DNA of 32,285 nucleotides from a virus (lineage: Duplodnaviria; Heunggongvirae; Uroviricota; Caudoviricetes), in the IMG/VR virus record IMGVR_UViG_2728369188_000005, one strand, 5' to 3'. Of the stretch, positions 1 through 32,285 are shown in pieces (positions within the stretch are counted from its first letter, which is position 1; each line of letters begins with the position of its first letter). Below the pieces are notes generated by a model that saw nothing but the letters and a program-made list of their open reading frames with translations, did not search any database and had not been told where the DNA came from. Made by a program: the position numbers and the translations under genes.

Positions 1-1857
1 ATGGCATTTAAACACTATGATGTTGTCAGGGCGGCGTCGCCGTCAGATCTTGCGGAAAAGCTGACACATAAACTGAAAGAGGGCTGGCAGCCGTTTGGTA
101 GTCCGGTGGCCATAACCCCTTATACCCTGATGCAGGCGATTGCAGCAGAAGGTGATGTGGTCGTCAGTGGTGCAACTGAGCCGGAGTGGTACTACGTCAT
201 CGTACTGGCCGGGCAATCCAATGCCATGGCTTACGGTGAAGGGCTTCCGCTTCCGGATTCTTACGATGCGCCCCACCCACGCATTAAGCAACTGGCCCGT
301 CGCAACACAGTGACTCCCGGTGGTAAAGCATGCGCATTTAACGACATCATTCCGGCAGACCACTGCCTGCATGATGTTCAGGATATGAGCGCACTGAATC
401 ATCCGAAGGCAGACCTGAGCAAAGGGCAGTACGGCTGTGTCGGCCAGGGCTTACATATTGCCAAAAAACTGCTTCCGTATATCCCGAATAACGCGGGGAT
501 CCTGCTGGTACCATGCTGTCGTGGTGGTTCGGCATTCACCCAGGGCGCGGAGGGGACATTCAGTGCGGACACGGGGGCCAGCCAGGATTCGGCACGCTGG
601 GGTGTGGGTAAACCGTTATATCAGGACCTGATCGCACGCACCAAAGCGGCATTACAGAGGAACCCGAAAAATGTGTTGCTGGCGGTGTGCTGGATGCAGG
701 GCGAATTTGACATGAGCGCTGCCACCTACGCACAGCAACCGGACCTGTTCACGGCCATGCTGAAGCAGTTCCGTACTGACCTTTCCGGATTTAACGCGCA
801 GTGCCATGGCGGCAGTGCTGCAGTTGTACCGTGGATTTGTGGCGACACGACGTATTACTGGAAAAACACATACGGCACACAGTATGACTCCGTCTACGGC
901 GCGTACAAAAACAGGGAGAGCGACAACGTTTTCTTTGTGCCGTTCATGACCGACGGTAACGGCAACAACACGCCCACCAACTTACCGGCAGAAGACCCGG
1001 ATATTGCTGATGCAGGTTATTACGGCGCGCAATCCCGTAGTAATGGTAATTGGGTATCATCAAATCGCCCGACGCATTTCAGCTCATGGGCGCGTCGTGG
1101 CATTATTCCCGATCGTATGGCAACTGCTATTCTGAACGTAGCCGGTCGCACCTTAGCCTTCATTAGTGGTAAGGCACCGGAAATCAAACCCTCGCCCGGC
1201 GGCGACACTCCATCGGGGCCGTCTGATGGTGACACATCCGTTCGTACAGTCTCCCTGCTGCCGACAGCCGGAGAGGCTGCTGCGCAGGGCTGGACCATCA
1301 CCGGCGGCAGTGTTGCGCTGGAAGATGGTGTGTTTAAGGTTACCAAGCAGAGCAATAAAACCTGGTCCCTGATGCATCCGGTGGATGACGCAGTCTCCCT
1401 GCTGACACGGGGTGGCAGACTGAGCTGTAAGTTTCGACTGTCAGGCGCACTGACCAACAACCAGTTCGGTCTGGGAATTTATCTGTATACCGATGTAGCG
1501 TTACCTGACGTCGTGGCGATGACCGGGACTGGTAACCCGTTCCTGATGTCGTTCTTCACCCAGACCACAGACGGCAAACTGAATCTGATGCATCACAGGA
1601 AAGCAGGAAACACAAAGTTGGGCGAGTTCGGGAATTACAGTAACGACTGGCAGACGCTGGAGCTGGTGTTCACCGCCGGCAGTGCCACGGTTACTCCGAA
1701 ACTGAATGGAGTGGCTGGCCCGGCATTCCAGGTCATAAAAGACAGTCTGACACTGGGGCTGAATGCGCTGACGCTGACGGATATTACCAAAAATGCAGCG
1801 TATGGCGTTGAGATAGAAAGTCTGGTGCTGGAGATAAATGCACCGGCATCATCATAA
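1..1857 (+). CDS. nanS-p: NanS-p-like 9-O-acetyl-N-acetylneuraminate esterase (SGNH/SASA-type sialate O-acetylesterase), 618 aa
   Basis: 618-aa ORF whose N-terminus (MAFKHYDVVRAASPSDLAEKL...) and GQSN esterase motif (VIVLAGQSNAMAYGEG) match, from memory, the prophage esterase found downstream of stx in Stx phages. Its position immediately upstream of the lysis cassette fits that layout. The ATG is at window position 1, so the start cannot be checked against upstream sequence. Confidence 0.75.
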   Translation: MAFKHYDVVRAASPSDLAEKLTHKLKEGWQPFGSPVAITPYTLMQAIAAEGDVVVSGATEPEWYYVIVLAGQSNAMAYGEGLPLPDSYDAPHPRIKQLARRNTVTPGGKACAFNDIIPADHCLHDVQDMSALNHPKADLSKGQYGCVGQGLHIAKKLLPYIPNNAGILLVPCCRGGSAFTQGAEGTFSADTGASQDSARWGVGKPLYQDLIARTKAALQRNPKNVLLAVCWMQGEFDMSAATYAQQPDLFTAMLKQFRTDLSGFNAQCHGGSAAVVPWICGDTTYYWKNTYGTQYDSVYGAYKNRESDNVFFVPFMTDGNGNNTPTNLPAEDPDIADAGYYGAQSRSNGNWVSSNRPTHFSSWARRGIIPDRMATAILNVAGRTLAFISGKAPEIKPSPGGDTPSGPSDGDTSVRTVSLLPTAGEAAAQGWTITGGSVALEDGVFKVTKQSNKTWSLMHPVDDAVSLLTRGGRLSCKFRLSGALTNNQFGLGIYLYTDVALPDVVAMTGTGNPFLMSFFTQTTDGKLNLMHHRKAGNTKLGEFGNYSNDWQTLELVFTAGSATVTPKLNGVAGPAFQVIKDSLTLGLNALTLTDITKNAAYGVEIESLVLEINAPASS

Positions 1858-4913: not shown

Positions 4914-6813
4914 TGCAGCCGGTGCGATAGCTACAGGGCTTTTATCTCTCATTATTCCTGTTCCACTGACGACAGTTCAGTGGGCCAATAAACATTATTA
5001 CCTTCCTAAAGAGTCGTCTTATACCCCGGGGCGGTGGGAAACACTGCCGTTTCAGGTTGGCATCATGAACTGTATGGGCAACGATCTGATTCGCACGGTT
5101 AACCTGATTAAATCTGCCCGTGTTGGTTATACAAAGATGTTGCTGGGAGTGGAGGCTTATTTTATTGAGCATAAATCACGCAACAGCCTTCTTTTTCAGC
5201 CCACGGACTCAGCTGCTGAAGATTTTATGAAATCTCATGTTGAGCCAACGATAAGGGATGTTCCTGCATTGCTGGAGCTGGCTCCATGGTTCGGAAGAAA
5301 ACACCGCGATAATACGCTCACCCTGAAGCGTTTTTCCTCCGGTGTGGGCTTCTGGTGCCTGGGTGGTGCGGCAGCAAAAAACTACCGTGAAAAATCCGTG
5401 GACGTGGTCTGCTATGACGAACTTTCCTCGTTCGAGCCGGATGTCGAAAAAGAGGGCTCGCCAACCCTGCTGGGGGATAAGCGTATTGAGGGCTCGGTAT
5501 GGCCAAAATCCATTCGCGGCTCGACGCCTAAAATAAAAGGCTCCTGCCAGATCGAAAAAGCGGCCAACGAGTCGGCGCATTTCATGCGTTTTTATGTGCC
5601 CTGCCCGCACTGTGGGGAGGCGCAGTATCTGAAATTTGGCGATGAGTCCACGCCTTTTGGCCTTAAATGGGAGAAGGACAGCCCCGAAAGCGTTTTCTAC
5701 CTTTGTGAACATCATGGCTGCGTGATCCATCAGTCTGAGCTTGACCAGAGCAACGGGCGGTGGATCTGCGAAAACACGGGGATGTGGACCCGCGACGGTC
5801 TGACGTTTTTCAGCGCCGCGGATAATGAAATTCCGCCGCCGCGCTCCATCACGTTCCATATCTGGACGGCGTACAGTCCGTTCACCACCTGGGTACAGAT
5901 AGTCTATGACTGGCTGGATGCACTGAAAGATCCCAACGGCCTGAAAACCTTTGTGAACACCACGCTGGGCGAGACCTGGGAAGAGGCCGTGGGCGAAAAA
6001 CTCGATCACCAGGTACTGATGGATAAGGTCGTGCATTACACGGCGGCGGTGCCAGCCCGGGTGGTTTATCTGACGGCGGGCATTGACTCGCAGCGAAACC
6101 GTTTTGAGATGTATGTCTGGGGATGGGCACCGGGAGAGGAAGCTTTTCTGGTGGATAAAATCATCATTATGGGCCGTCCCGATGAGGAAGAGACGCTGTT
6201 ACGTGTGGATGCGGCGATCAACAAAAAATACTGCCATGCAGACGGAACCGAAATGACCATTTCCCGTGTCTGCTGGGACACCGGGGGGATCGATGGTGAA
6301 ATTGTCTATCAGAGGTCAAAAAAACACGGTGTTTTCCGGGTGCTGCCGGTAAAAGGCGCATCTGTCTATGGCAAGCCGGTGATCACCATGCCGAAAACCC
6401 GCAATCAGCGGGGCGTGTATCTGTGTGAAGTGGGGACGGACACCGCAAAAGAAATTCTCTATGCCCGTATGAAAGCCGATCCCACGCCTGCGGATGAAGC
6501 CACGTCGTATGCCATCCGTTTTCCTGATGATCCGGAGATTTTTTCGCAGACAGAGGCGCAGCAACTGGTCGCGGAAGAGCTTGTGGAGAAGTGGGAAAAA
6601 GGAAAGATGCGTCTGCTGTGGGATAACAAAAAGCGGCGTAACGAAGCGCTGGACTGCCTGGTGTATGCCTATGCGGCATTACGTGTGTCCGTGCAACGCT
6701 GGCAGCTTGATCTGGCTGTACTGGCAAAATCCCGGGAAGAAGAGACGACCCGGCCAACCCTTAAAGAACTGGCAGCGAAGCTGTCCGGAGGAGTGAATGG
6801 TTACAGTCGCTGA
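4885..6813 (+). CDS. A: Terminase large subunit gpA, about 642 aa
   Basis: Collinear with lambda gpA throughout (WETLPFQ..., KSARVGY..., ATPase and nuclease regions). Start chosen at ATG 4885 (MISDAQ...), which overlaps the Nu1 3-prime end as in lambda; the ORF track's upstream ATG at 4843 would add 14 aa. Confidence 0.9.
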
Positions 6814-7003
6814 ACTACAGGCGCTGCGTCAGGCGCGCCTTGATTTATTAACCGGTAAACGGGTGGTGTCTGTCCAGAAAGATGGTCGCAGAATTGAATA
6901 TACGGCGGCTTCTCTGGATGAGCTTAACCGGGCGATCAATGATGCGGAGTCGGTACTGGGGACAACCCGACGTCGCCGTCGTCCGCTGGGAGTGAGGTTA
7001 TGA
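6797..7003 (+). CDS. W: Head-tail joining protein gpW, 68 aa
   Basis: Same 68-aa length and the motif LTGKRVVSVQKDGRRIEYTAAS as lambda gpW; start overlaps the A 3-prime end. Confidence 0.9.
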   Translation: MVTVAELQALRQARLDLLTGKRVVSVQKDGRRIEYTAASLDELNRAINDAESVLGTTRRRRRPLGVRL

Positions 7004-8592
7004 AACGAACGCCTGTCCTGATTGATGTGAACGGCGTTCCGCTTCGTGAGAGTCTCAGCTACAACGGGGGCGGCGCAGGATTTGGCGGGCAAATGGCGGA
7101 GTGGTTGCCACCGGCGCAGAGTGCCGATGCGGCCCTGCTACCCGCGTTGCGTCTGGGGAATGCCCGGGCAGATGATCTGGTGCGCAATAACGGAATAGCG
7201 GCTAATGCGGTGGCTCTGCATAAGGATCACATTGTCGGGCATATGTTTCTGATCAGCTACCGTCCGAACTGGCGCTGGCTGGGGATGCGGGAGACCGCAG
7301 CAAAAAGCTTTGTCGATGAGGTGGAGGCGGCCTGGTCGGAATACGCCGAAGGGATGTTTGGTGAGATCGACGTGGAAGGAAAACGCACGTTCACGGAATT
7401 TATCCGTGAAGGTGTGGGCGTTCATGCGTTTAACGGCGAAATCTTTGTGCAGCCGGTCTGGGATACGGAAACCACGCAGTTATTCCGTACGCGTTTTAAA
7501 GCCGTGAGTCCGAAACGGGTGGACACGCCTGGACACGGTATGGGGAACCGTTTTCTGCGGGCCGGTGTGGAGGTCGATCGATATGGCCGTGCCGTCGCGT
7601 ACCATATTTGTGAGGACGATTTTCCGTTCTCTGGTAGTGGACGATGGGAACGGATCCCGCGTGAACTTCCCACCGGGCGTCCGGCCATGCTGCATATTTT
7701 CGAGCCGGTGGAGGACGGGCAGACCCGTGGGGCTAATCAGTTTTACAGCGTCATGGAACGGCTGAAGATGCTCGATTCCCTGCAGGCAACACAGCTTCAG
7801 TCGGCCATAGTGAAGGCGATGTATGCAGCGACGATTGAAAGTGAACTTGATACCGAAAAGGCCTTTGAATATATCGCCGGTGCGCCGCAGGGGCAGAAGG
7901 ATAATCCGCTTATTAATATTCTGGATAAGTTCTCCACCTGGTATGACACGAATCACGTGACGCTGGGCGGTGTCAAAATTCCGCACCTTTTCCCCGGTGA
8001 TGATCTGAAACTTCAGACCGCGCAGGATTCAGACAATGGATTTTCGGCGCTTGAACAGGCGCTGCTGCGGTATATCGCCGCCGGTCTTGGCGTTTCCTAC
8101 GAACAGTTGTCCCGTGATTACTCGAAGGTCAGTTATTCAAGTGCCCGCGCCTCCGCCAATGAGTCGTGGCGCTATTTTATGGGGCGGCGAAAATTTATTG
8201 CGTCCCGGCTGGCCACGCAGATGTTTTCCTGCTGGCTGGAAGAGGCACTTCTTCGGGGGATTATTCGTCCGCCACGGGCACGTTTTGATTTTTATCAGGC
8301 GCGATCAGCCTGGTCACGGGCTGAGTGGATTGGAGCCGGAAGAATGGCCATTGACGGGCTCAAGGAGGTTCAGGAATCAGTGATGCGCATTGAGGCCGGA
8401 CTGAGCACGTATGAGAAAGAGCTGGCGCTGATGGGCGAGGATTATCAGGACATTTTCCGCCAGCAGGTCAGGGAATCTGCAGAGCGGGAAAAAGCCGGAC
8501 TCTCACGTCCGGTGTGGATAGCGCAGGCGTATCAGCAGCAGATAGCGGAGAGTCGCAGGCCGGAAGAGGAGACAACACCACGTGAGACGTAA
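7000..8592 (+). CDS. B: Portal protein gpB, 530 aa
   Basis: Size and position (after W, before C) as lambda gpB (533 aa); ATGA start/stop overlap with W. Confidence 0.95.
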   Translation: MKRTPVLIDVNGVPLRESLSYNGGGAGFGGQMAEWLPPAQSADAALLPALRLGNARADDLVRNNGIAANAVALHKDHIVGHMFLISYRPNWRWLGMRETAAKSFVDEVEAAWSEYAEGMFGEIDVEGKRTFTEFIREGVGVHAFNGEIFVQPVWDTETTQLFRTRFKAVSPKRVDTPGHGMGNRFLRAGVEVDRYGRAVAYHICEDDFPFSGSGRWERIPRELPTGRPAMLHIFEPVEDGQTRGANQFYSVMERLKMLDSLQATQLQSAIVKAMYAATIESELDTEKAFEYIAGAPQGQKDNPLINILDKFSTWYDTNHVTLGGVKIPHLFPGDDLKLQTAQDSDNGFSALEQALLRYIAAGLGVSYEQLSRDYSKVSYSSARASANESWRYFMGRRKFIASRLATQMFSCWLEEALLRGIIRPPRARFDFYQARSAWSRAEWIGAGRMAIDGLKEVQESVMRIEAGLSTYEKELALMGEDYQDIFRQQVRESAEREKAGLSRPVWIAQAYQQQIAESRRPEEETTPRET

Positions 8593-23716: not shown

Positions 23717-24316
23717 ATGCGTAAATTATGTGCTGTTATTCTGTCCACAGTAGTCTGGCTGGTCGCCGCTGGTACGCCAGCGAGCGCAGCAGAGCATCAG
23801 TCCACACTAAGCGCGGGGTATCTTCATGCCCGTACGAACGCTCCCGGCAGCGATAATCTGAACGGGATTAACGTGAAATACCGTTATGAGTTTACGGACG
23901 CGCTGGGGCTGATTACGTCCTTCAGTTATGCCAATGCTGAGGATAAGCAAAAAACGCACTACAGCGATACCCGCTGGCATGAAGATTCCGTGCGTAACCG
24001 CTGGTTCAGCGTGATGGCGGGGCCGTCTGTGCGCGTGAATGAATGGTTCAGCGCGTATGTGATGGCGGGTATGGCTTACAGCCGTGTGTCGACTTTCTCC
24101 GGGGATTATCTCCGCGTAACTGACAACAAGGGGAAAAAGCACGATGTGCTGACCGGAAGTGATGACGGTCGCCACAGCAACACGTCTCTGGCGTGGGGGG
24201 CTGGCGTGCAGTTTAACCCGACCGAATCCGTGGCCATTGATATTGCTTATGAAGGCTCCGGCAGTGGCGACTGGCGCACTGACGGTTTCATCGTGGGTGT
24301 CGGTTATAAGTTCTGA
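23717..24316 (+). CDS. lom: Lom outer-membrane protein (Ail/Lom family beta-barrel), 199 aa
   Basis: Signal peptide (MRKLCAVILSTVVWLVAAGTPASA) followed by alternating beta-strand sequence ending in the C-terminal aromatic GYKF; lambda lom position directly after J. GAGAGG Shine-Dalgarno. Confidence 0.9.
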   Translation: MRKLCAVILSTVVWLVAAGTPASAAEHQSTLSAGYLHARTNAPGSDNLNGINVKYRYEFTDALGLITSFSYANAEDKQKTHYSDTRWHEDSVRNRWFSVMAGPSVRVNEWFSAYVMAGMAYSRVSTFSGDYLRVTDNKGKKHDVLTGSDDGRHSNTSLAWGAGVQFNPTESVAIDIAYEGSGSGDWRTDGFIVGVGYKF

Positions 24317-24380: not shown

Positions 24381-24390
24381 NNNNNNNNNN
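24381..24390. other. Assembly gap (10 N)
   Basis: Run of n. Sequence before the gap ends at the stf 5-prime leader (GTGGAGTGGAT); sequence after it resumes in the middle of a J homologue. Confidence 0.95.
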
Positions 24391-26707
24391 CTTCAGCGCC
24401 CTGAAGGACCGCCATAATGCCGTTGAGGTGAACTGGATTGACCCGAACAACGGCTGGGAGACGGCGACAGAGCTTGTTGAAGATACGCAGGCCATTGCCC
24501 GTTACGGTCGTAATGTCACGAAGATGGATGCCTTTGGCTGTACCAGCCGGGGGCAGGCACACCGCGCCGGGCTGTGGCTGATTAAAACGGAACTGCTGGA
24601 AACGCAGACCGTGGATTTCAGCGTGGGCGCAGAAGGGCTTCGCCATGTGCCGGGCGATGTTATTGAAATCTGCGATGATGACTATGCCGGTATCAGCACC
24701 GGTGGTCGCGTGCTGGCGGTGAACAGCCAGACCCGGACGCTGACTCTCGACCGTGAAATCACGCTGCCATCCTCCGGTACCACGCTGATAAGCCTGGTTG
24801 ACGGAAGTGGCAATCCGGTCAGCGTGGAGGTTCAGTCCGTCACCGACGGCGTGAAGGTAAAAGTGAGCCGTGTTCCTGACGGTGTTGCTGAATACAGCGT
24901 ATGGGGGCTGAAGCTGCCGACGCTGCGCCAGCGACTGTTCCGCTGCGTGAGTATCCGTGAGAACGACGACGGCACGTATGCCATCACCGCCGTGCAGCAT
25001 GTGCCGGAAAAAGAGGCCATCGTGGATAACGGGGCGCACTTTGACGGCGAACAGAGTGGCACGGTGAATGGTGTCACGCCGCCAGCGGTGCAGCACCTGA
25101 CCGCAGAAGTCACTGCAGACAGCGGGGAATATCAGGTGCTGGCGCGATGGGACACACCGAAGGTGGTGAAGGGCGTGAGCTTCCTGCTTCGCCTGACCGT
25201 GGCAGCGGATGACGGCAGTGAGCGGCTGGTCAGCACGGCCCGGACGACGGAAACCACATACCGCTTCACGCAACTGGCGCTGGGAAACTACAGGCTGACA
25301 GTCCGGGCGGCAAATGCCTGGGGGCAGCAGGGCGATCCGGCATCGGTATCGTTCCGTATTGCCGCACCGGCAGCGCCGTCGCGGATTGAGCTGACGCCGG
25401 GCTATTTTCAGATAACCGCCACGCCCCATCTTGCCGTTTATGATCCGACGGTACAGTTTGAGTTCTGGTTCTCGGAAAAGCGGATTGCGGATATCAGGCA
25501 GGTTGAAACCACAGCCCGCTATCTTGGCACGGCGCTGTACTGGATAGCTGCCAGTATCAATATCAAACCGGGCCATGATTATTATTTTTACATCCGCAGT
25601 GTGAACACCGTTGGCAAATCGGCATTTGTGGAGGCTGTTGGCCAGCCGAGTGATGATGCATCCGGCTATCTGGATTTTTTCAAAGGCGAGATAGGGAAAA
25701 GCCATCTGGCTCAGGAGCTGTGGACGCAGATTGATAACGGTCAGCTTGCGCCTGACCTGGCTGAAATCAGGACGTCCATTACGGATGTCAGCAATGAAAT
25801 CACGCAGACCGTCAATAAGAAACTGGAAGACCAGAGTGCGGCAATTCAGCAGATACAGAAGGTTCAGGTTGATACAAATAATAACCTGAACAGCATGTGG
25901 GCTGTGAAGCTGCAGCAGATGCAGGACGGACGCCTTTATATCGCGGGTATTGGTGCCGGTATTGAGAATACCCCTGACGGTATGCAGAGTCAGGTGCTGC
26001 TGGCGGCGGACAGGATTGCGATGATTAATCCTGCGAATGGCAATACAAAGCCGATGTTTGTTGGTCAGGGCGATCAGATATTCATGAACGAAGTGTTCCT
26101 GAAATATCTGACGGCTCCCACCATTACCAGCGGCGGTAATCCTCCGGCATTTTCCCTGACACCGGACGGGCGGCTGACGGCGAAAAATGCCGATATCAGC
26201 GGTAGCGTGAATGCGAACTCCGGGACGCTCAACAACGTCACGATTAACGAGAACTGTCGGGTTCTGGGAAAACTGTCCGCGAACCAGATTGAAGGCGATC
26301 TCGTTAAAACAGTGGGCAAAGCTTTCCCCCGGGACTCCCGTGCACCGGAGCGGTGGCCATCAGGGACCATTACCGTCAGGGTTTATGACGATCAGCCGTT
26401 TGACCGGCAAATTGTTATTCCGGCGGTGGCATTCAGTGGCGCTAAGCATGAGAGAGAGCATACTGATATTTACTCCTCATGCCGTCTGATAGTGCGGAAA
26501 AACGGTGCTGAAATTTATAACCGTACCGCGCTGGATAATACGCTGATTTACAGTGGCGTTATTGATATGCCTGCCGGTCACGGTCACATGACGCTGGAGT
26601 TTTCGGTGTCAGCATGGCTGGTAAATGACTGGTATCCCACAGCAAGTATCAGCGATTTGCTGGTTGTGGTGATGAAGAAAGCCACCGCAGGCATCAGTAT
26701 CAGCTGA
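24391..26707 (+). CDS. J: Second gpJ copy, 5-prime truncated by the gap (C-terminal ~770 aa present), diverged from copy 1
   Basis: Begins [31 protein letters not shown]..., which aligns with J copy 1 from about residue 385. Roughly 70-80% identical by eye through most of its length, but nearly identical over the last ~500 nt (26206-26620 versus 23148-23560). Confidence 0.85.
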
Positions 26708-26726
26708 ATTTTATAACCCCAATACG

Positions 26727-26750
26727 GGCGTCAGAAATGACGCCTTTTTT
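26727..26750 (+). terminator. Intrinsic terminator after J copy 2
   Basis: GGCGTCA(26727-26733), loop GAAA, TGACGCC(26738-26744), then TTTTTT. Differs from copy 1 by a compensatory pair (C to T in the left arm, G to A in the right arm). Confidence 0.7.
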
Positions 26751-26774
26751 ATTGCAGAAAAGCGAGAGGTAATT

Positions 26775-27374
26775 ATGCGTAAATTATGTGCTGTTATTCT
26801 GTCCACAGTAGTCTGGCTGGTCGCCGCTGGTACGCCAGCGAGCGCAGCAGAGCATCAGTCCACACTAAGCGCCGGGTATCTTCAGACCCATACTGATATG
26901 CCCGGCAACGATGACCTGAAGGGCATTAACGTGAAATACCGTTATGAATTTACGGACACGCTGGGGCTGGTGACGTCATTCAGTTATGCCAATGCCAAAG
27001 ATGAGCAAAAAACGCATTACAGCGATACCCGCTGGCATGAAGATTCAGTGCGTAACCGCTGGTTCAGCATGATGGCGGGGCCGTCTGTACGCGTGAATGA
27101 ATGGTTCAGTGCTTATGCGATGGCAGGTGTGGCTTACAGCCGTGTTTCGACTTTTTCCGGGGATTATCTCCGCGTAACTGACAGCAAGGGGAAAACGCAC
27201 GATGTGCTGACCGGAAGTGATGACGGTCGCCACAGCAACACGTCTCTGGCGTGGGGGGCTGGCGTGCAGTTTAACCCGACCGAATCCGTGGCCATTGATA
27301 TTGCTTATGAAGGCTCCGGCAGTGGTGACTGGCGCACTGACGGTTTCATCGTGGGTGTCGGTTATAAATTCTGA
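26775..27374 (+). CDS. lom: Lom outer-membrane protein, second copy, 199 aa
   Basis: About 90% identical by eye to lom copy 1 (differences include HARTNAPGSDNLNG versus QTHTDMPGNDDLKG); same signal peptide and C-terminus. Confidence 0.9.
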   Translation: MRKLCAVILSTVVWLVAAGTPASAAEHQSTLSAGYLQTHTDMPGNDDLKGINVKYRYEFTDTLGLVTSFSYANAKDEQKTHYSDTRWHEDSVRNRWFSMMAGPSVRVNEWFSAYAMAGVAYSRVSTFSGDYLRVTDSKGKTHDVLTGSDDGRHSNTSLAWGAGVQFNPTESVAIDIAYEGSGSGDWRTDGFIVGVGYKF

Positions 27375-27400
27375 TTAGCCAGGTAACACAGTGTTATGAC

Positions 27401-27427
27401 AGCCCGCCGGTTCAGGCGGGCTTTTTT
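27401..27427 (+). terminator. Intrinsic terminator after lom copy 2
   Basis: Same AGCCCGCC / GGCGGGCT hairpin and T run as after lom copy 1. Confidence 0.65.
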
Positions 27428-27438
27428 GTGGAGTGGAT

Positions 27439-29846
27439 ATGGCAGCAGTAAAAATCTCAGGTGTGCTGAAAGATGGTGCGGGAAAACCAATACAGAACTG
27501 CACTATTCAACTGAAGGCAAAGCGTAACAGCACCACGGTACTGGTGAACACGGTGGCCTCTGAAAATCCTGATGAAGCCGGGCGTTACAGCATGGATGTT
27601 GAGTATGGCCAGTACAGCGTCACCCTGCTGGTTGAAGGTTNNNNNNNNNNNNNNNNNNNNNNNNNNNNNNNNNNNNNNNNNNNNNNNNNNNNNNNNNNNN
27701 NNNNNNNNNTTCCAGACCAGGTACGCTGAATGATTTTCTCGGTGCCATGACGGAGGATGATGTCCGACCGGAGGCACTGCGCCGCTTTGAGCAGATGGTG
27801 GAAGAAGCGGCACGCAACGCTGAAGCCGCCTCTCAGAGCGCAGCGGCGGCAAAGAAATCCGAAACTGCAGCGGCATCATCGAAGAACGCGGCGAAAACCT
27901 CAGAAACGAATGCAGCTAATAGTGCACAGGCGGCAGCGACCTCAAAGACTGCATCGGCAAACTCCGCGACAGCAGCCAAAAAATCAGAAACCAACGCGAA
28001 AAATAGCGAGACAGCCGCAAAGACGAGCGAAACCAACGCAAAGTCCAGCCAGACGGCAGCGAAAACCAGCGAAACGAATGCCAAAGCCAGTGAAACTGCG
28101 GCAAAAAACAGCCAGGTTGCAGCAGCCCAAAGCGAGAGCGCGGCAGCCGGTTCTGCGACTTCAGCAGCTGGATCAGCAACTGCTGCAGCTAACAGCCAGA
28201 AAGCAGCGAAGACGAGCGAAACTAACGCAAAGTCCAGCCAGACGGCAGCGAAGACCAGCGAAACGAATGCCAAAGCCAGCGAAACTGCGGCGAAAAACAG
28301 CCAGGTTGCAGCAGCCCAAAGCGAGAGCGCGGCAGTTGGTTCTGCAAGCGCGGCGGCTGCTTCTGCCACTGCATCAGCCAACAGTCAAAAAGCGGCAAAA
28401 ACCAGTGAAACCAATGCAAAGACAAGCGAGACTGCAGCGGCCAACTCGGCGAAAGCATCCGCTGCAAACCAGACCGCTGCAAAAGCAAGTGAAGACGCAG
28501 CCAGAGAGTATGCAAGCCAGGCAGCAGATCCGTATAAATATGTCTTACAGCCGCTGCCTGATGTGTGGATACCGTTTAACGATTCACTGGATATGATTAC
28601 GGGCTTTTCGCCATCATATAAAAAGATTGTTATTGGTGACGACGAAATAACGATGCCTGGCGACAAGATTGTTAAGTTTAAACGTGCATCGAAAGCAACC
28701 TATATTAACAAATCTGGTGTGCTGACAGAGGCTGCCATTGATGAGCCACGATTTGAACGTGATGGCCTGCTTATTGAGGGGCAAAGAACTAATCTTCTGC
28801 TTAATTCAACAAATCCATCTAAATGGAATAAGTCAGGCAATCTGGAACTCACAGAAATATCCACGGATTCTTTTAATTTTACTTATGGGAGATTTACTGT
28901 AAAAGATACTCTTATTGGTCAGACAAGTGCTATTAATATCGTAACGGTTTCTGGCAGTAAAGGGTTTGATGTCACAGGTGATGAAAAATATGTGACCATT
29001 TCATGCCGTGTAAGAAGTGATGTTGAAAATGTAAGGTGTCGTTTAAGATTTGAACACCATGATGGTTATACTTACACTTTTTTGGGAGATGCTTACCTCA
29101 ATTTATCAACACTTGTAATTGATAAAGCTGGTACTGCTGCAGACCGTATTATTGCAAAGGCTGTAAAAGATGAGGTTACTGGTTGGATTTTCTATCAGGC
29201 TACAATTAATGCACTAGATACAGAGAGCATGATTGGTGCGATGGTTCAATACGCTCCTGTAAAAGGTTCAGGCACAGCATCTGGAGACTATCTGGATATC
29301 GCAACTCCACAAGTGGAAGGTGGATCAAGTGCTTCGTCATTTATTGTAACTGATATAACTGCAAGCACTCGCGCAAGCGATATGGTGACAGTCCCAATCA
29401 AGAATAACCTTTATAATCTTCCTTTTACGGTTCTTTGTGAGGTACATAAGAACTGGTATAAAACGCCAAATGCAGCACCGCGTGTTTTTGATACCGGCGG
29501 TCATCAAACCGGAGCGGCTATTATTCTTGGCTTCGGTCGTTCAACAGATTACGACGGATTTCCTTATTGTGATATAGGTTTGGCTAACAGACGGGTAAAC
29601 GAAAACGCATCGCTTGAAAAAATGGTTATGGGGATGCGTGTAAAGTCAGATCAGTCTACGTGCTCAGTAAGTAACGGGCGTATATCCAGCGAAAAGAAAG
29701 CCACATGGTCCTATATTCAGAACTCCGCAATTATCCGTATTGGAGGCCAGACTACAGCCGGGTTACGTCATTTATTTGGTCATGTCAGGAATTTCAGAAT
29801 ATGGCACAAGGCATTGACTGATGCTCAGATGGGGGAGTCAATCTAA
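27439..29846 (+). CDS. stf: Side tail fibre protein Stf, interrupted by the N gap at 27641-27709
   Basis: N-terminus MAAVKISGVLKDGAGKPIQNCTIQLKAKRNSTTVLVNTVASENPDEAGRYSMDVEYGQYSVTLLVEG matches lambda Stf. After the gap the frame continues ...PGTLNDFLGAMTEDDVRPEALRRFEQMVEE..., then an Ala/Ser/Thr-rich repeat shaft and a ~430-aa C-terminal domain. True length and frame continuity across the gap are unknown. Confidence 0.85.
27641..27709. other. Assembly gap (69 N) inside stf
   Basis: Run of n. Confidence 0.95.
28018..28395 (+). repeat. Tandem duplication of a 189-bp (63-aa) unit within the stf shaft
   Basis: GACGAGCGAAAC...AGCCAGACGGCAGCG recurs with period 189 nt (28022 and 28211); protein unit AKTSETNAKSSQTAAKTSETNAKASETAAKNSQVAAAQSESAA... 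occurs twice. Confidence 0.7.
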
Positions 29847-30074
29847 TGAAAGATTTAACACTCAAATTTGCAGACAGGGCCGACTTTTCGGCCTTTATGG
29901 ATAGCATTGGCTATTATGATGACGAGTCGATGCAGGATGATATTCTTATTGACGTGATAGGTAATGTGTACAAAGAAACCGGAGAACTGACTGAAGATGG
30001 CGAACCGGTATGTGTTAAGGAAGACGGATATTTTGTAAACGTGCGCATCATTAATGATTCGCAAATATCGTCAT
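29846..30074 (+). CDS. Hypothetical protein, 3-prime end lost in the N gap (N-terminal 76 aa visible)
   Basis: ATG 29846 overlaps the stf stop (TAATG), with GGGGGAG 8 nt upstream. MKDLTLKFADRADFSAFMDSIGYYDDESMQDDILIDVIGNVYKETGELTEDGEPVCVKEDGYFVNVRIINDSQISS; acidic and soluble; not recognised. Confidence 0.5.
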
Positions 30075-30172
30075 NNNNNNNNNNNNNNNNNNNNNNNNNN
30101 NNNNNNNNNNNNNNNNNNNNNNNNNNNNNNNNNNNNNNNNNNNNNNNNNNNNNNNNNNNNNNNNNNNNNNNN
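30075..30172. other. Assembly gap (98 N)
   Basis: Run of n. Confidence 0.95.
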
Positions 30173-30833
30173 GGGAGATGTCAGTAAGGCAAAGGAAGAT
30201 ATTTCCTCAATTAACGTAAAAGTATCAACGCTTCAGACTGATATGGACAGTGCAAAGCAGGATATCAGTACCAGATACACAAAAACAGAAGTGGATAATA
30301 AGCTGAAAAACAAAGTGGAAGTGAACGATCTGGAAAGTGGTCGTTATGGCGGAGATTTTTACCCGCTGACTGGCCGTGAAGCGTTTTATTTATGGGGATT
30401 GGGCACAACTACAGCGGCGGCAAATCTTTATCTTAATCCTGACCCCGCAATTTCGTCTGTGCTGCGGTCAACATCGTCTATCCGCTATAAACATTCAGTA
30501 GAGACGATAGATTCAGAGCACGCCGATCTCATTTTCAGGATGCGCCCTGTGTGGTACAGGTCGCAATGCGAAAATGACAGGCGTGACTGGGGATTCTATG
30601 GATTGATTGCCGAGGAAGTAGGAGAAATTGCCCCTCAGTTTGTTCACTGGCGACCAGCTAACGAGAATGATGCTCCTGAAGCTATTTCCAGCAATGGCCT
30701 TGTTGCCGAAGGTGTAATGTACGAACGTCTGGTTGTTCCACTGATTCACCATATCCAGAAACTGACTGAAAGAGTTGATGAACTTGAGTCAGAATTAAAG
30801 TTGTTATCAACTTCCCGAAGCGATATCGGATAA
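30173..30833 (+). CDS. C-terminal part of a tail fibre/tailspike with a peptidase-S74-type intramolecular chaperone domain (5-prime end in gap)
   Basis: Coiled-coil stretch (DISSINVKVSTLQTDMDSAKQDISTRYTKTEVDNKLKNKVEVNDLE), then SSIRYKHSVETIDSEHADLIF...DWGFYGLIAEEVGEIAPQFV...NGLVAEGVMYERLVVPLIHHIQKLTERVDELESELKLL. From memory this is the hallmark of the self-cleaving C-terminal chaperone of phage fibres (endosialidase, T5 L-fibre type). Confidence 0.6.
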
Positions 30834-30843
30834 AGGAGGAGTA

Positions 30844-31137
30844 ATGGATATAACACCTTTCCTTCATGCACTTTGTGCTGTGGCTGCGCAGGTACTGGTT
30901 GGTCTTTTTACCGGAAACTGGGCTTACGGGGCGATAGCCGGTTGTACGTTCTTCATTGCTCGTGAACATACCCAGGCAGAATATCGCTGGATTGAAATGT
31001 TCGGGCATGGCAAGCGAATGAATATGCCGTGGTGGGGCGGTTTTGATCCGCGCGCGTGGGATGTAGCAAGTCTGATGGATTTTGCTGTGCCGGTGGTGGC
31101 GTGTCTGCTGGTCTGGCTGTTGGTTAATCGTGGGTGA
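30844..31137 (+). CDS. Small predicted membrane protein, 97 aa, function unknown
   Basis: Perfect AGGAGG Shine-Dalgarno 4 nt upstream of ATG 30844. Two or three hydrophobic segments (FLHALCAVAAQVLVGLF, AYGAIAGCTFFIA, FAVPVVACLLVWLLV). Confidence 0.6.
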   Translation: MDITPFLHALCAVAAQVLVGLFTGNWAYGAIAGCTFFIAREHTQAEYRWIEMFGHGKRMNMPWWGGFDPRAWDVASLMDFAVPVVACLLVWLLVNRG

Positions 31138-31147
31138 AAAAAGGTGA

Positions 31148-31276
31148 GCTGTATATGCAACGGAGGAAGAAACCTCGTTGCTGGAAGCCTGGAAGAAGTA
31201 TCGGGTGTTGCTGAACCGTGTTGATACATCAACTGCACCTGATATTGAGTGGCCTACGAACCCTGTCAGGGAGTAA
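31148..31276 (+). pseudogene. tfa: Remnant 3-prime end of a tail fibre assembly gene (tfa), no start codon
   Basis: Reads ...[39 protein letters not shown] stop, the conserved Tfa C-terminus. It is preceded in frame by a stop at 31145-31147 and has no upstream Tfa N-terminal domain. Confidence 0.6.
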
Positions 31277-31416
31277 TCATTGGGATTATGCCGCAGCACG
31301 TCTTAAGCAAGAACGTGCTGCGGTTGGATGCTATTTTTTCCCTGAAGCGGAAAACATTACTACAGTACCTTGAACCTTGGTTTTAACATTCTCGAAATGC
31401 TCTGAGAGTATATGTG

Positions 31417-31950
31417 TTAAGCCTTCTTCGGAATCTTTTGTGNNNNNNNNNNNNNNNNNNNNNNNNNNNNNNNNNNNNNNNNNNNNNNNNNNNNNNNNNN
31501 NNNNNNNNNNNNNNNNNNNNNNNNNNNNNNNNNNNNNNNNNNNNNNNNNNNNNNNNNNNNNNNNNNNNNNNNNNNNNNNNNNNNNNNNNNNNNNNNNNNN
31601 NNNNNNNNNNNNNNNNNNNNNNNNNNNNNNNNNNNTTCAAAAACATCATGGCTAATTTTATGTTTAATTTTTGATTCCCCAGCCCTTGTAGATGCCGCGT
31701 TCAGGCTAGCTTCGTTCAAATCCATTAAAGATATCAGACTACTCTCAGGTACGTGAGTAAGATAAAACCCAGTTCCAACACCAATATCCAGATGGTTGTT
31801 ACCTAAATGTTCCAGAAAGTGTGGAAGAAGGTGTTCCTTTGTAGGACATCCCCATGCAAGCCGATTTGATACTCCCAAAACCCACCAGTCATAAAGCTTT
31901 AGGGTAAGTGGTGTGTAAATTTTAGCCCCATCATCTGTGTTTTTTTTCAT
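31417..31950 (-). CDS. Class I SAM-dependent methyltransferase-like protein (minus strand), interrupted by the N gap at 31443-31635
   Basis: Minus-strand ORF whose N-terminal 105 aa (MKKNTDDGAKIYTPLTLKLYDWWVLGVSNRLAWGCPTKEHLLPHFLEHLGNNHLDIGVGTGFYLTHVPESS...) contains a Rossmann motif-I-like LDIGVGTGF. GGTGA Shine-Dalgarno precedes ATG 31950 (alternative ATG 31962). The C-terminal 8 codons after the gap end at the stop at 31417-31419; frame across the gap is unverifiable. Confidence 0.45.
   Translation of the reverse strand: MKKNTDDGAKIYTPLTLKLYDWWVLGVSNRLAWGCPTKEHLLPHFLEHLGNNHLDIGVGTGFYLTHVPESSLISLMDLNEASLNAASTRAGESKIKHKISHDVFEXXXXXXXXXXXXXXXXXXXXXXXXXXXXXXXXXXXXXXXXXXXXXXXXXXXXXXXXXXXXXXXXXQKIPKKA
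31443..31635. other. Assembly gap (193 N)
   Basis: Run of n. Confidence 0.95.
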
Positions 31951-32018
31951 TGATTTCACCATGTTATAGTTTTATTTGTGAATTAAATCAATTATGGCGA
32001 TGAATTACAAGGGGTTAA

Positions 32019-32285
32019 ATGCTGCCGCAGCATAGCGATATTGAAATAGCCTGGTATGCTTCGATACAGCAGGAGCCGAATGGCTGGAAGACCGTCACCA
32101 CACAGTTCTACATCCAGGAATTCAGTGAGTATATTGCGCCACTGCAGGATGCTGTAGATCTGGAAATCGCAACGGAGGAAGAAAGATCGTTGCTGGAGGC
32201 ATGGAATAAATATCGGGTGTTGTTGAATCGTGTTGATACATCAACTGCACCTGATATTGAGTGGCCGACTTCACCTGCAGAGTAA
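32019..32285 (+). CDS. tfa: Tail fibre assembly protein Tfa-like, short form (C-terminal domain only), 88 aa
   Basis: ...[50 protein letters not shown] matches the conserved lambda/e14 Tfa C-terminus. AAGGGG Shine-Dalgarno before ATG 32019; stop coincides with the window end. Confidence 0.7.

Follow-up and report, generated by a model that had tools for sequence, protein, structure and literature searches.

A YbcY-family methyltransferase gene between two direct tfa 3' ends of an E. coli lambda-like prophage

Genes and features at the locus

The window (the whole 32,285-nt stretch of DNA that was analysed) closes with the tfa–ybcY–tfaX end of an E. coli lambda-like prophage, in which a small methyltransferase gene lies between two direct tfa 3' ends (Table 1); its last position is the end of the tfaX stop codon. 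The closest complete genome was that of E. coli FDAARGOS_536 (NZ_CP033762.1), which carries potB approximately 230 nt past the point that matches the window end. The region would represent the right-hand "moron" end of a lambdoid prophage integrated beside potB. The int gene and the methyltransferase gene are on the same strand, and the prophage holds a separate DNA methyltransferase after Q. The window contains four runs of N, two of which enclose a suspicious second J-lom piece of 3.3 kb.

Table 1. Features of the tfa–ybcY–tfaX region, in positions of the whole window.
Feature	Position	Strand	Remarks
orf97 (97 aa, phrog_1443)	30844..31137	+	last gene of the replacement fibre module
Start-less tfa 3' remnant	31157..31276	+	39 codons and stop (31274-31276); direct-repeat copy 1 = 31157-31257
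Direct repeat, conserved tfa 3' end	31157-31257 vs 32169-32269	same orientation	101 nt, 91% identical
Post-tfa spacer with strong hairpin	31277..31324	.	stem at about 31291-31323, between convergent tfa and methyltransferase frames
Cargo proper	31319..32105	-	gene, 12 nt past its stop and 143 nt upstream of its start; GC 41%
ybcY-family class I SAM-dependent methyltransferase gene	31331..31962	-	222 aa when complete; phrog_2132; interrupted by an N run
Methyltransferase upstream region	31963..32111	-	moves with the gene; conserved in Citrobacter
TfaX-like chimeric ORF	32019..32285	+	88 aa; phrog_2341, full length; direct-repeat copy 2 = 32169-32269

The first-pass annotation had placed a 193-N gap within the gene. 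The gap was confirmed at 31443-31635, where NZ_CP033762.1 has 230 nt. As the run keeps neither the length nor the frame of the gene, the true gene span is 31331-31962 and not the mechanically listed ORF at 31417-31962. The flanks of the run are 100% identical to NZ_CP033762.1, in which the gene is an intact 222-codon ORF (protein WP_023148666.1); a frameshifted gene was therefore rejected. The gene content of the 193 masked positions was read from FDAARGOS_536 and not from the window itself, and the domain tests likewise used the complete gene of this identical genome, the window copy being masked over 31443-31635. Outside the N run, closed complete genomes matched the arrangement of the window base for base (30173-32285).

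The methyltransferase and its family

An antisense class I SAM-dependent methyltransferase with the motif I LDIGVGTGF had been noted from the letters alone, and classification of the complete protein with profile models had been suggested. The protein, encoded on the minus strand, exceeded the Pfam cutoffs for Methyltransf_12 (37.6 bits; cutoff 30), Methyltransf_23 (28.8; 27), Methyltransf_25 (27.7; 27) and Methyltransf_11 (24.6; 21.2), in agreement with that assignment, and matched phrog_2132 over profile positions 1-218 of 218 (E 8e-157). The DIGVGTG motif was invariant in 33 homologues. A predicted structure (pLDDT 90), built from the cluster representative P0002 (identical at 220 of 222 positions), showed a Rossmann-like alpha/beta fold. 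The best structural matches were small-molecule or lipid enzymes, namely the PmtA-type phosphatidylethanolamine N-MT 8ys9, DhpI, BelI, Coq5/UbiG and JHAMT; however, these were only 12-21% identical, with a flat ranking and no standout family. The PDB sequence-profile search gave weak matches only (JHAMT, 3e-5; UbiG, 2e-3), and NCBIfam gave no equivalog, the matches to CpaM and RquA (17 bits each) being below the cutoffs of 175-180. Compared with known small-molecule methyltransferases, the YbcY family has invariant motifs of its own, i.e., YDWWVL, HD, HCLPG, HN and YN.KGIF.N; in P0002, the invariant pairs His-Asp, His-Cys and His-Asn occupy residues 105-106, 129-130 and 167-168. PADLOC returned no family at E <= 0.01 for the methyltransferase, the 88-aa ORF or orf97.

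Homologues at 50-75% identity were stand-alone chromosomal genes with no tfa nearby, found in Salmonella, Enterobacter, Yersinia, Pseudomonas and other Gammaproteobacteria. Among the neighbours of 73 chromosomal homologue loci, no partner gene was conserved across genera; the best neighbour cluster was present at 17 of the 73 and looks like lineage-specific synteny. The ORF was intact in all 78 complete IMG/VR copies, with a dN/dS of 0.1-0.2, and the gene is, as judged from these sequences, under purifying selection. The predicted fold and the selection support a functional enzyme, with small molecules or lipids as its putative substrate class. Our literature search found no work on the function, substrate or phenotype of YbcY; ybcY was named only in lists. 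In a single reported test, the Keio ybcY mutant was without effect on Hha toxicity. Likewise, nothing relevant was found on exchangeable effector loci at the tail fiber or on lambdoid moron methyltransferases.

Two tfa 3' ends and the fibre module upstream

Two near-identical tfa 3' segments of about 100 nt had been described in the same orientation. They were recovered on alignment as the direct repeat of Table 1, which is well above the chance expectation for a 32-kb window and extends weakly to about 31148 when a 9-nt gap is permitted. The left copy is start-less, as had been stated; it is 98% identical to the 3' end of the full-length K-12 tfaD and 100% identical over tfaD residues 149-187. 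RefSeq labels an identical sequence "tail fiber assembly protein, incomplete, missing N-terminus", and both tfa copies are pseudogenes in its annotation. No full-length tfa was found in the window, in which only tfaD residues 125-184 and 149-187 were matched. Neither copy falls within Caudo_TAP as a family member, as neither covers the whole profile and the left copy has no start.

The right copy, which the first-pass annotation had taken for a short tfa-like gene, proved to be a chimera. Codons 1-31 of its 88-aa ORF (32019-32111) lie inside the cargo upstream region, and 32112-32285 is the tfa 3' part; residues 31-87 match Caudo_TAP positions 75-131 of 131 (Pfam, E 4e-25). RefSeq annotates only the 174-nt tfa part here, as an N-terminally truncated pseudogene, and K-12 tfaX has an earlier stop. 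Most likely, the TfaX ORF and the start-less remnant are scars of recombination and not working chaperones.

Upstream of the left copy, the replacement fibre module has the order stf, orf93, a 234-aa fibre protein with a Peptidase_S74 chaperone domain, and orf97. The junction between orf97 and tfa falls within 31138-31156, and homology to K-12 tfaD begins exactly at 31157; the same orf97-remnant junction was present in 8 of the 80 IMG/VR loci. This comparison shows that the left copy was truncated at 31157 by fibre-module replacement, and that the spacer following the right copy gave way to other sequence past 32269. The stf-tfa genes were swapped for the module of the Peptidase_S74 chaperone-domain protein and orf97. 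Thus, the left remnant was made later than the insertion and is not a product of gene capture.

The same region was judged not to be invertible in the first-pass annotation, and our searches agree. No inverted repeats bound the segment, the sole inverted repeat in 26000-32285 being an unrelated 21-nt pair at 26062-26123, and a tblastn search of the whole window with Pin from phage Kati found no serine invertase. An invertible tail-fibre segment was rejected, as the tfa ends are direct and the invertase is absent from the window. In some relatives (Kati, L082), tfa and the methyltransferase gene are separated by a pin invertase gene.

Cargo, spacer and upstream region

The true length of the cargo is approximately 824 nt, which is longer than its span in the window because the 193-N run stands for 230 nt. 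Over 825 nt, the cargo was 92% identical to a locus of Citrobacter freundii without tfa sequence, and this shared segment matches the approximately 824-nt insert left between the 227-nt repeats in 34 of 80 IMG/VR loci. The Citrobacter locus, which delimits the cargo, adjoins a dinI-like gene and could itself be what is left of a prophage; it is no proof of a native chromosomal source. The boundaries of the repeat and of the Citrobacter homology are offset by 6 nt, at which no microhomology was seen on reading the sequence by eye. The GC content of the cargo is 41%, against 54% for the window. This AT-rich composition, together with the stand-alone chromosomal homologues in other genera, supports the view that the cargo is foreign.

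The hairpin of the post-tfa spacer stands just 3' of the methyltransferase stop codon. The fold of 31268-31345 reached -35.5 kcal/mol, with z values of -5.2 on the plus strand and -5.9 on the minus strand, and a terminator consensus scan at the cassette called no canonical terminator. In the commonest relatives, the hairpin spacer belongs to the duplicated unit. On the other side of the gene, a sigma-70-like TTAACC-16-CATAAT element is located at about 31991-32018 (minus strand), 29-56 nt upstream of the start, in a site count that is not above shuffle expectation. By genomic SELEX, the K-12 ybcY/tfaX spacer has been reported to bind both RpoD holoenzyme and H-NS (PMC3946193). The methyltransferase is probably expressed in the lysogen from its own H-NS-silenced, putative sigma-70 promoter. 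After excision, the gene would lie approximately 0.5 kb downstream of int across attP, and pL read-through may also reach it, by analogy with the lambda b region.

Distribution and cassette-less alleles

The gene was found at >=95% nucleotide identity in 3832 of 5426 complete E. coli genomes (~70%; 71%), at up to four places per genome, and also in isolated lambdoid phages (ev243, 2G7b, Kati and the PhiR series). A survey of homologous prophages had been proposed as the way to tell an insertion from a standard component. The gene turned out to be standard, an outcome that the first-pass annotation had itself named as counting against its reading. We therefore kept one half of the earlier claim that a foreign gene was captured here: the gene is foreign by composition and by its chromosomal homologues, whereas local capture is contradicted by K-12 DLP12 and by the 3832 genomes.

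Cassette anatomy was assessed in a sample of 80 IMG/VR loci. The spacing from tfaX to the methyltransferase gene was 207 nt in 76 of 78 loci, and the tail-side tfa repeat followed the gene after 74-76 nt in 71 of 80. A repeat of approximately 227 nt, beginning 6 nt after the stop codon and ending 149 nt before the start codon, was present in 34 of 80. These comparisons show that methyltransferase and tfaX have spread through the lambdoid phages together, as a single unit. In relatives, other cargo occupies the slot next to it: an ipaH-type effector, yciE/yciF/Mn-catalase-like genes, an alpha/beta hydrolase, ompT and appY.

Cassette-less alleles were present in one genome at the potB-site prophage and in nine genomes at the DLP12 site, with flanks otherwise collinear. 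Their single tfa ends are hybrids, with left-copy sequence 5' and right-copy sequence 3', and the five alleles examined have five different switch points inside the repeat; these points were mapped against the K-12 or window repeats and not against each strain's true parent, and the CFIA allele is a D-X-D-X mosaic. The differing switch points of the hybrids indicate that the repeats do recombine, in line with the earlier statement that the tfa 3' end is recombinationally active. In experiments, lambda is known to recover markers that had been set into the stf/tfa homology of a prophage, by Red/RecA recombination (PMC3945230). Homologous recombination between the direct flanking copies would delete the cassette, and the rare genomes carry exactly such a product. 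The cassette is thus unstable; the direction, which we infer to be loss, is read from a presence/absence polymorphism without phylogenetic polarity.

Discussion

We consider it likely that the region is a lambdoid "moron" end in which an approximately 824-nt ybcY cargo, coding for a putative small-molecule or lipid enzyme, arrived by an old insertion and spread as a block, after which the left copy was truncated and the repeats remained unstable. One old insertion would have duplicated about 227 nt of target, i.e., the last 158 nt of tfa and the 68-nt hairpin spacer. Such a duplication is the expected product of single-crossover (Campbell-type) integration of a molecule with this homology, or of unequal crossing-over between two phage genomes. 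This origin is reconstructed from the repeat geometry alone, with no intermediate seen.

Since the same trio is present in K-12 DLP12, and the gene is widespread in E. coli and in plaque-forming lambdoid phages, the locus is best regarded as the intact form of the DLP12 trio tfaD-ybcY-tfaX and not as a fresh capture. Direct repeats bound the gene and the cargo is AT-rich and foreign, as would be expected if recombination at the tfa 3' end had recently trapped a foreign gene in one particular phage; however, DLP12, 71% of complete E. coli genomes and several isolated phages share the unit and its invariant spacing, and the left boundary at 31157 is explained by the later fibre-module swap, which makes a recent local capture highly improbable. 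An artefact of assembly or scaffolding, in which the repeats and the N run came from a mis-joined draft, would be suggested by the four N runs and the J-lom piece, but closed genomes identical outside the N run contradict it for 30173-32285, and it can be practically dismissed. A reading with somewhat more in its favour, though still unlikely, takes the single-copy alleles as ancestral empty sites that received the cassette on repeated occasions through homologous recombination. Gain and loss by way of one homology leave identical junctions, and lambda picks up cassettes embedded in stf/tfa homology (PMC3945230). However, no more than 10 of the 5426 genomes have single-copy alleles, whereas thousands have the cassette, and five switch points in five alleles of scattered strains fit sporadic loss better.

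We also weighed selection on the tfa 3' ends themselves, with TfaX as a working mini-chaperone or the repeats as a designed excision on/off switch. The recurrence of the 88-aa ORF as a PHROG (phrog_2341, full length) and the invariant spacing between tfaX and the methyltransferase gene would fit; however, only the last 57 of 131 Caudo_TAP positions are present, the first 31 codons lie in sequence without a called gene in Citrobacter, K-12 tfaX stops earlier, RefSeq calls both copies pseudogenes, and block inheritance of the unit suffices for the spacing. We hold this to be quite unlikely. A role of the enzyme in nucleic acid modification, whether anti-restriction or epigenetic, like that of Mom, encoded downstream of the Mu fibre genes, is very unlikely: no (D/N/S)PP(Y/F/W) or PCQ motif was seen by eye in the sequence, the top structural matches are small-molecule or lipid enzymes, PADLOC was empty, the prophage has its separate DNA methyltransferase, and the homologues are lone chromosomal genes.

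Beyond the reading of an old insertion with block spread, a bolder proposal, which we regard as unlikely, is that the approximately 1.05-kb unit (227-nt tfa-end repeat and 824-nt cargo) would be a homology-borne mobile cassette with YbcY as a lysogenic-conversion factor. If the proposal holds, the unit would loop out via its direct repeats and re-enter any lambdoid phage with a tfa 3' end by a single crossover, and YbcY would methylate an envelope lipid or a toxic small molecule; this role would account for the retention of intact copies in ~70% of E. coli genomes. YbcY is among the most widespread uncharacterised prophage-borne enzymes of E. coli, and identification of its substrate would annotate thousands of genes together. 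The locus is also a clean natural case in which lambdoid phages have portable homology in the conserved tfa 3' end, which serves as the right boundary of fibre-module swaps and also brackets cargo that is sometimes lost by repeat recombination.

Comparison with known systems

The tfa–ybcY–tfaX arrangement is well known, an ordinary sequence feature annotated in thousands of genomes. K-12 DLP12 has the same three elements in equal order and orientation, with 99% nucleotide identity at ybcY (gene and locus alike) and 96% on the tfaX side. However, K-12 ybcY is shorter by 2 nt and carries a pseudogene annotation, whereas the gene is intact in the complete genome matching the window flanks. K-12 keeps the long tfaD and the window only its last 120 nt; beyond tfaX, K-12 continues with appY-ompT-envY, and the window's counterpart genome has its potB flank approximately 230 nt on. 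The K-12 repeats are 84% identical, compared with 91% in the window.

The cargo resembles morons and the lambda b region (ea47-ea31-ea59) in being a non-essential AT-rich gene with its own upstream region between tfa and att; as in the b region, it is antisense to the late operon and co-oriented with int. As in morons, it is present or absent among collinear relatives, deviates in composition and has homologues outside phages. Unlike morons generally, it is bracketed by a long direct duplication of the 3' end of the adjoining structural gene, and with this duplication at both sides, homologous recombination can delete the cassette. Duplicated tfa and fibre 3' sequences beside fibre genes are shared with Mu G/Gin, P1 C/Cin and e14 P/Pin; in contrast to these systems, the repeats are direct, and the window has neither an invertase nor an alternative fibre C-terminus.

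Structure of the locus

The first-pass annotation had described two direct tfa 3′ repeats flanking an antisense methyltransferase-like gene, and all of these elements were recovered, with the LDIGVGTGF motif on the minus strand (see table). Pairwise alignment returned the same repeat block as the repeat search, with a weak extension to ~31148 when a 9-nt gap was allowed. The repeats are direct, so the segment is not invertible, as had been stated.

The N run within the gene stands for 230 nt in Escherichia coli FDAARGOS_536 (NZ_CP033762.1), the closest complete genome, to which 30173-32285 is 100% identical outside the run. Read across the run with this sequence, the methyltransferase gene is intact and not frameshifted, and the feature is real. 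Pfam assigned the complete protein to class I methyltransferase domains above threshold, in agreement with the earlier motif-based reading.

In FDAARGOS_536, J, lom and stf are followed by a 93-aa ORF, a 234-aa fibre protein with a Peptidase_S74 chaperone domain and a 97-aa ORF; then come a 'tail fiber assembly protein, incomplete', a 'class I SAM-dependent methyltransferase' (222 aa, minus strand), a second 'tail fiber assembly protein, incomplete' and, ~230 nt further, potB. With this order up to potB, the region is the right end of a lambdoid prophage. The integrase gene, encoded on the methyltransferase strand, is found ~50 kb further left. The fibre module of the window (~29846-30833, and orf97 at 30844-31137) is without a full tfa and consists of stf, the 93-aa ORF, the 234-aa Peptidase_S74 intramolecular-chaperone protein and orf97, a hydrophobic-looking 97-aa protein. 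Upstream in the same prophage (L101, 18016-19065), a separate annotated DNA methyltransferase, three tRNA genes and iraM are found downstream of the Q antiterminator, and the first gene of the window (1-1857) has the annotation SASA-family carbohydrate esterase.

Features of the window and of the cargo slot in related prophage loci (window positions unless a locus is named)
Feature	Position	Strand	Remarks
Direct repeat, two copies	31157-31257 and 32169-32269	same orientation	Repeat search: 101 nt, 91% identical, 1012 nt apart
Left tfa copy	TAA stop at 31274-31276	+	Reading frame without start
Right tfa copy	32019-32285	+	End of 88-aa ORF; residues 31-87 match Pfam Caudo_TAP positions 75-131 of 131, E 4e-25
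Methyltransferase gene	stop 31331-31333, start 31962	-	LDIGVGTGF motif; between the tfa copies
Hairpin in spacer	31291-31323		Between convergent tfa remnant and methyltransferase frames; -35.5 kcal/mol for 78-nt context, z = -5.2; 11-bp perfect core stem
N runs	24381-24390, 27641-27709, 30075-30172, 31443-31635
Slot cargo, L068	4985-6628 (locus)		547-aa LRR protein with IpaH-like C-terminal region; likeness by eye from sequence
Slot cargo, L080	5422-7380 (locus)		Two 168-aa ORFs and a 296-aa ORF, resembling YciE, YciF and manganese catalase; by eye
Slot cargo, L082	2131-2721 (locus)		pin invertase
Slot cargo, phage Kati (L005)	6767-7357 (locus)		pin invertase

Boundaries of the cassette

We compared 80 IMG/VR loci carrying the methyltransferase gene. 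The distance from the gene start to the tfaX-side repeat was 207 nt in 76 of 78 loci, and the tail-side repeat lay 74-76 nt past the gene end in 71 of 80. The tail-side repeat was joined to a long tfa in ~50 of the 80 loci and to orf97, as in the window, in 8; a second count gives 9 of 80 loci with orf97, in which it directly adjoins the tfa remnant. In the commonest class (34/80), self-comparison of the two flanks gave a direct repeat of ~227 nt (88-90% identity), which starts 6 nt past the stop codon and ends 149 nt before the start codon of the methyltransferase; it comprises the last 158 nt of tfa and ~68 nt of post-stop spacer, leaving ~824 nt between the copies. These comparisons show that a duplication of the tfa end bounds the cassette.

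A Citrobacter freundii locus with a 92%-identical gene contains no tfa sequence at all and shares exactly 31319-32105 (825 nt in real length) with the window. From this match, the cargo comprises the methyltransferase gene, 12 nt past its stop and 143 nt of upstream DNA. Codons 1-31 of the 88-aa 'TfaX' ORF are thus the upstream region of the cargo read on the opposite strand; no gene is called there in Citrobacter. We propose that one ancient insertion made the 227-nt duplication, by a Campbell-type single crossover or by unequal crossing-over. The TfaX ORF and the start-less remnant are most likely recombination scars.

In the window, the tfaD homology starts abruptly at 31157, directly adjoining orf97, and on the right side the sequence departs from the spacer after 32269. 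These two breaks mark the window arrangement as a derived form, in which a fibre-module swap truncated the left copy. The spacer hairpin at the left copy belongs to the duplicated spacer in relatives and received no call from a consensus terminator scan. A second GC-rich hairpin (CCTCCCCGAC...GTCGGGGAGG) is found just past the window end (L001, 10520-10555), between the tfaX stop and potB; it is followed by the decamer TTGGGATTAT, which also stands directly after the stop of the left remnant (31280-31289). The second hairpin and decamer may be left over from the duplicated spacer or may lie near the att core.

The slot that separates the tfa spacer from the 3′ end of the methyltransferase gene (~31285-31291) is a general cargo site, in which relatives hold extra genes co-oriented with the methyltransferase. 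Six other loci of the same class as L068 probably hold the same IpaH-like cargo.

Recombination between the repeats

Cassette-less alleles were sought with two chimeric 601-nt queries, in which the left flank and repeat were joined to the sequence after the right repeat; the queries were short enough that cassette-bearing loci cannot join into one match. In one genome (T309.Ta3), the prophage at the potB site ran from orf97 over a single tfa remnant to potB, and nine genomes had the DLP12-site order stf, tfa, appY without ybcY and tfaX. In all five alleles examined, the single tfa end was composed of left-copy sequence 5′ and right-copy sequence 3′. The switch lay between 'GAACCG' and 'GGCCG' in T309 and at four other positions in EM18-18-42, O169:H41, CFIAFB20190172 and SFE8. 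Such hybrid ends are what homologous recombination between direct repeats is expected to yield. The alleles show that recombinant single-copy forms exist, and the junctions bear out the earlier statement that tfa 3′ ends are recombinogenic.

We favour sporadic losses as the origin of the single-copy alleles because these are rare (10/5426) and their junctions differ; gain of the cassette through the same tfa homology is the less likely reading. The 3′ half of the right copy in the window is closer to tfaD-type sequence than K-12 tfaX is, which suggests conversion between the tfa copies. In experiments, phage lambda picks up markers from the Rac and Qin prophages when these are set in stf/tfa homology, at ~2e-6 and mainly via Red-beta (PMC3945230).

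The enzyme

The AlphaFold2 model of the methyltransferase was confident (pLDDT 90.4). DNA-methyltransferase motif IV was not seen by eye in the sequence, and PADLOC gave no match. The family has 2296 detectable homologues; those with 50-75% identity are single chromosomal genes of Salmonella, Enterobacter, Klebsiella, Yersinia, Erwinia, Proteus, Pasteurellaceae, Pseudomonas and Xanthomonadales, in varied contexts with no tfa nearby and no shared neighbour. The tfa flanks occur only around copies at least 98% identical, from Escherichia, Shigella and two short MAG contigs labelled Bacillus sp. and Planococcaceae (L104 and L113; 99% identity), which are almost certainly binning contamination. 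The GC content of the cargo is 41%, compared with 54% for the window; together with the tfa-free chromosomal homologues, this upholds the description of the cargo as foreign. The ORF is intact in 78/78 complete IMG/VR copies, and its dN/dS against relatives is 0.10-0.20.

We infer a small molecule or lipid as the substrate of the enzyme. In the lysogen, the gene presumably has its own promoter for expression; once the prophage is excised, read-through from int may also reach it. The K-12 ybcY/tfaX spacer is among listed binding sites of RpoD holoenzyme, with H-NS (PMC3946193), and one test of Hha toxicity showed no effect of the Keio ybcY mutant (PMC2408971). Our literature search found no paper on the function of YbcY, a very widespread prophage enzyme.

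Assembly of the window

The N runs keep neither length nor frame (69 vs 40 nt, 98 vs 106 nt and 193 vs 230 nt in the window and the identical complete genome, respectively); any ORF called through a run is therefore in the wrong frame and misleading. After the 10-N run, 24391-27640 is a second copy, 82% identical, of the C-terminal part of J, lom and the first ~200 nt of stf, and the window thus shows two lom genes (23717-24316 and 26775-27374). The 69-N run ends this piece; the flanks are 100% and 99.7% identical to FDAARGOS_536, which is without the 3.3-kb piece. Two readings fit the duplicate (24381-27709): a contig of another lambdoid prophage was mis-joined in the scaffold, or the tandem duplication is real.

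Comparison with known arrangements

At 95% nucleotide identity or above, 3832 of the 5426 complete E. coli genomes carry the methyltransferase gene, in 1-4 places each. It is thus a standard component in the survey of relatives and not, as the first-pass annotation had proposed in speaking of a capture here, an insertion particular to this prophage. Fourteen phage records, including ev243, 2G7b, Kati, Turner and the PhiR series, carry the full-length protein at 98.6-99.5% identity. Phages ev243 and 2G7b share the local order of the window; next to it they have an alpha/beta hydrolase gene, ompT and int, each in the orientation of the methyltransferase. Full-length PHROG matches were obtained for the methyltransferase (phrog_2132), the 88-aa ORF (phrog_2341) and orf97 (phrog_1443). 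These comparisons show the feature to be the ybcY cassette common to lambdoid prophages.

The same order is found in the cryptic prophage DLP12 of K-12 MG1655, as tfaD (+), ybcY (-, a pseudogene) and tfaX (+). Window 31157-31442 matches the K-12 tfaD end and ybcY start at 98% identity, and 31636-32265 matches tfaX and the remainder of ybcY at 96%; K-12 ybcY and the methyltransferase gene share 99.0% identity, the K-12 copy being 2 nt shorter. The arrangement, previously regarded as unusual, is of low novelty because it is already annotated and named in K-12.
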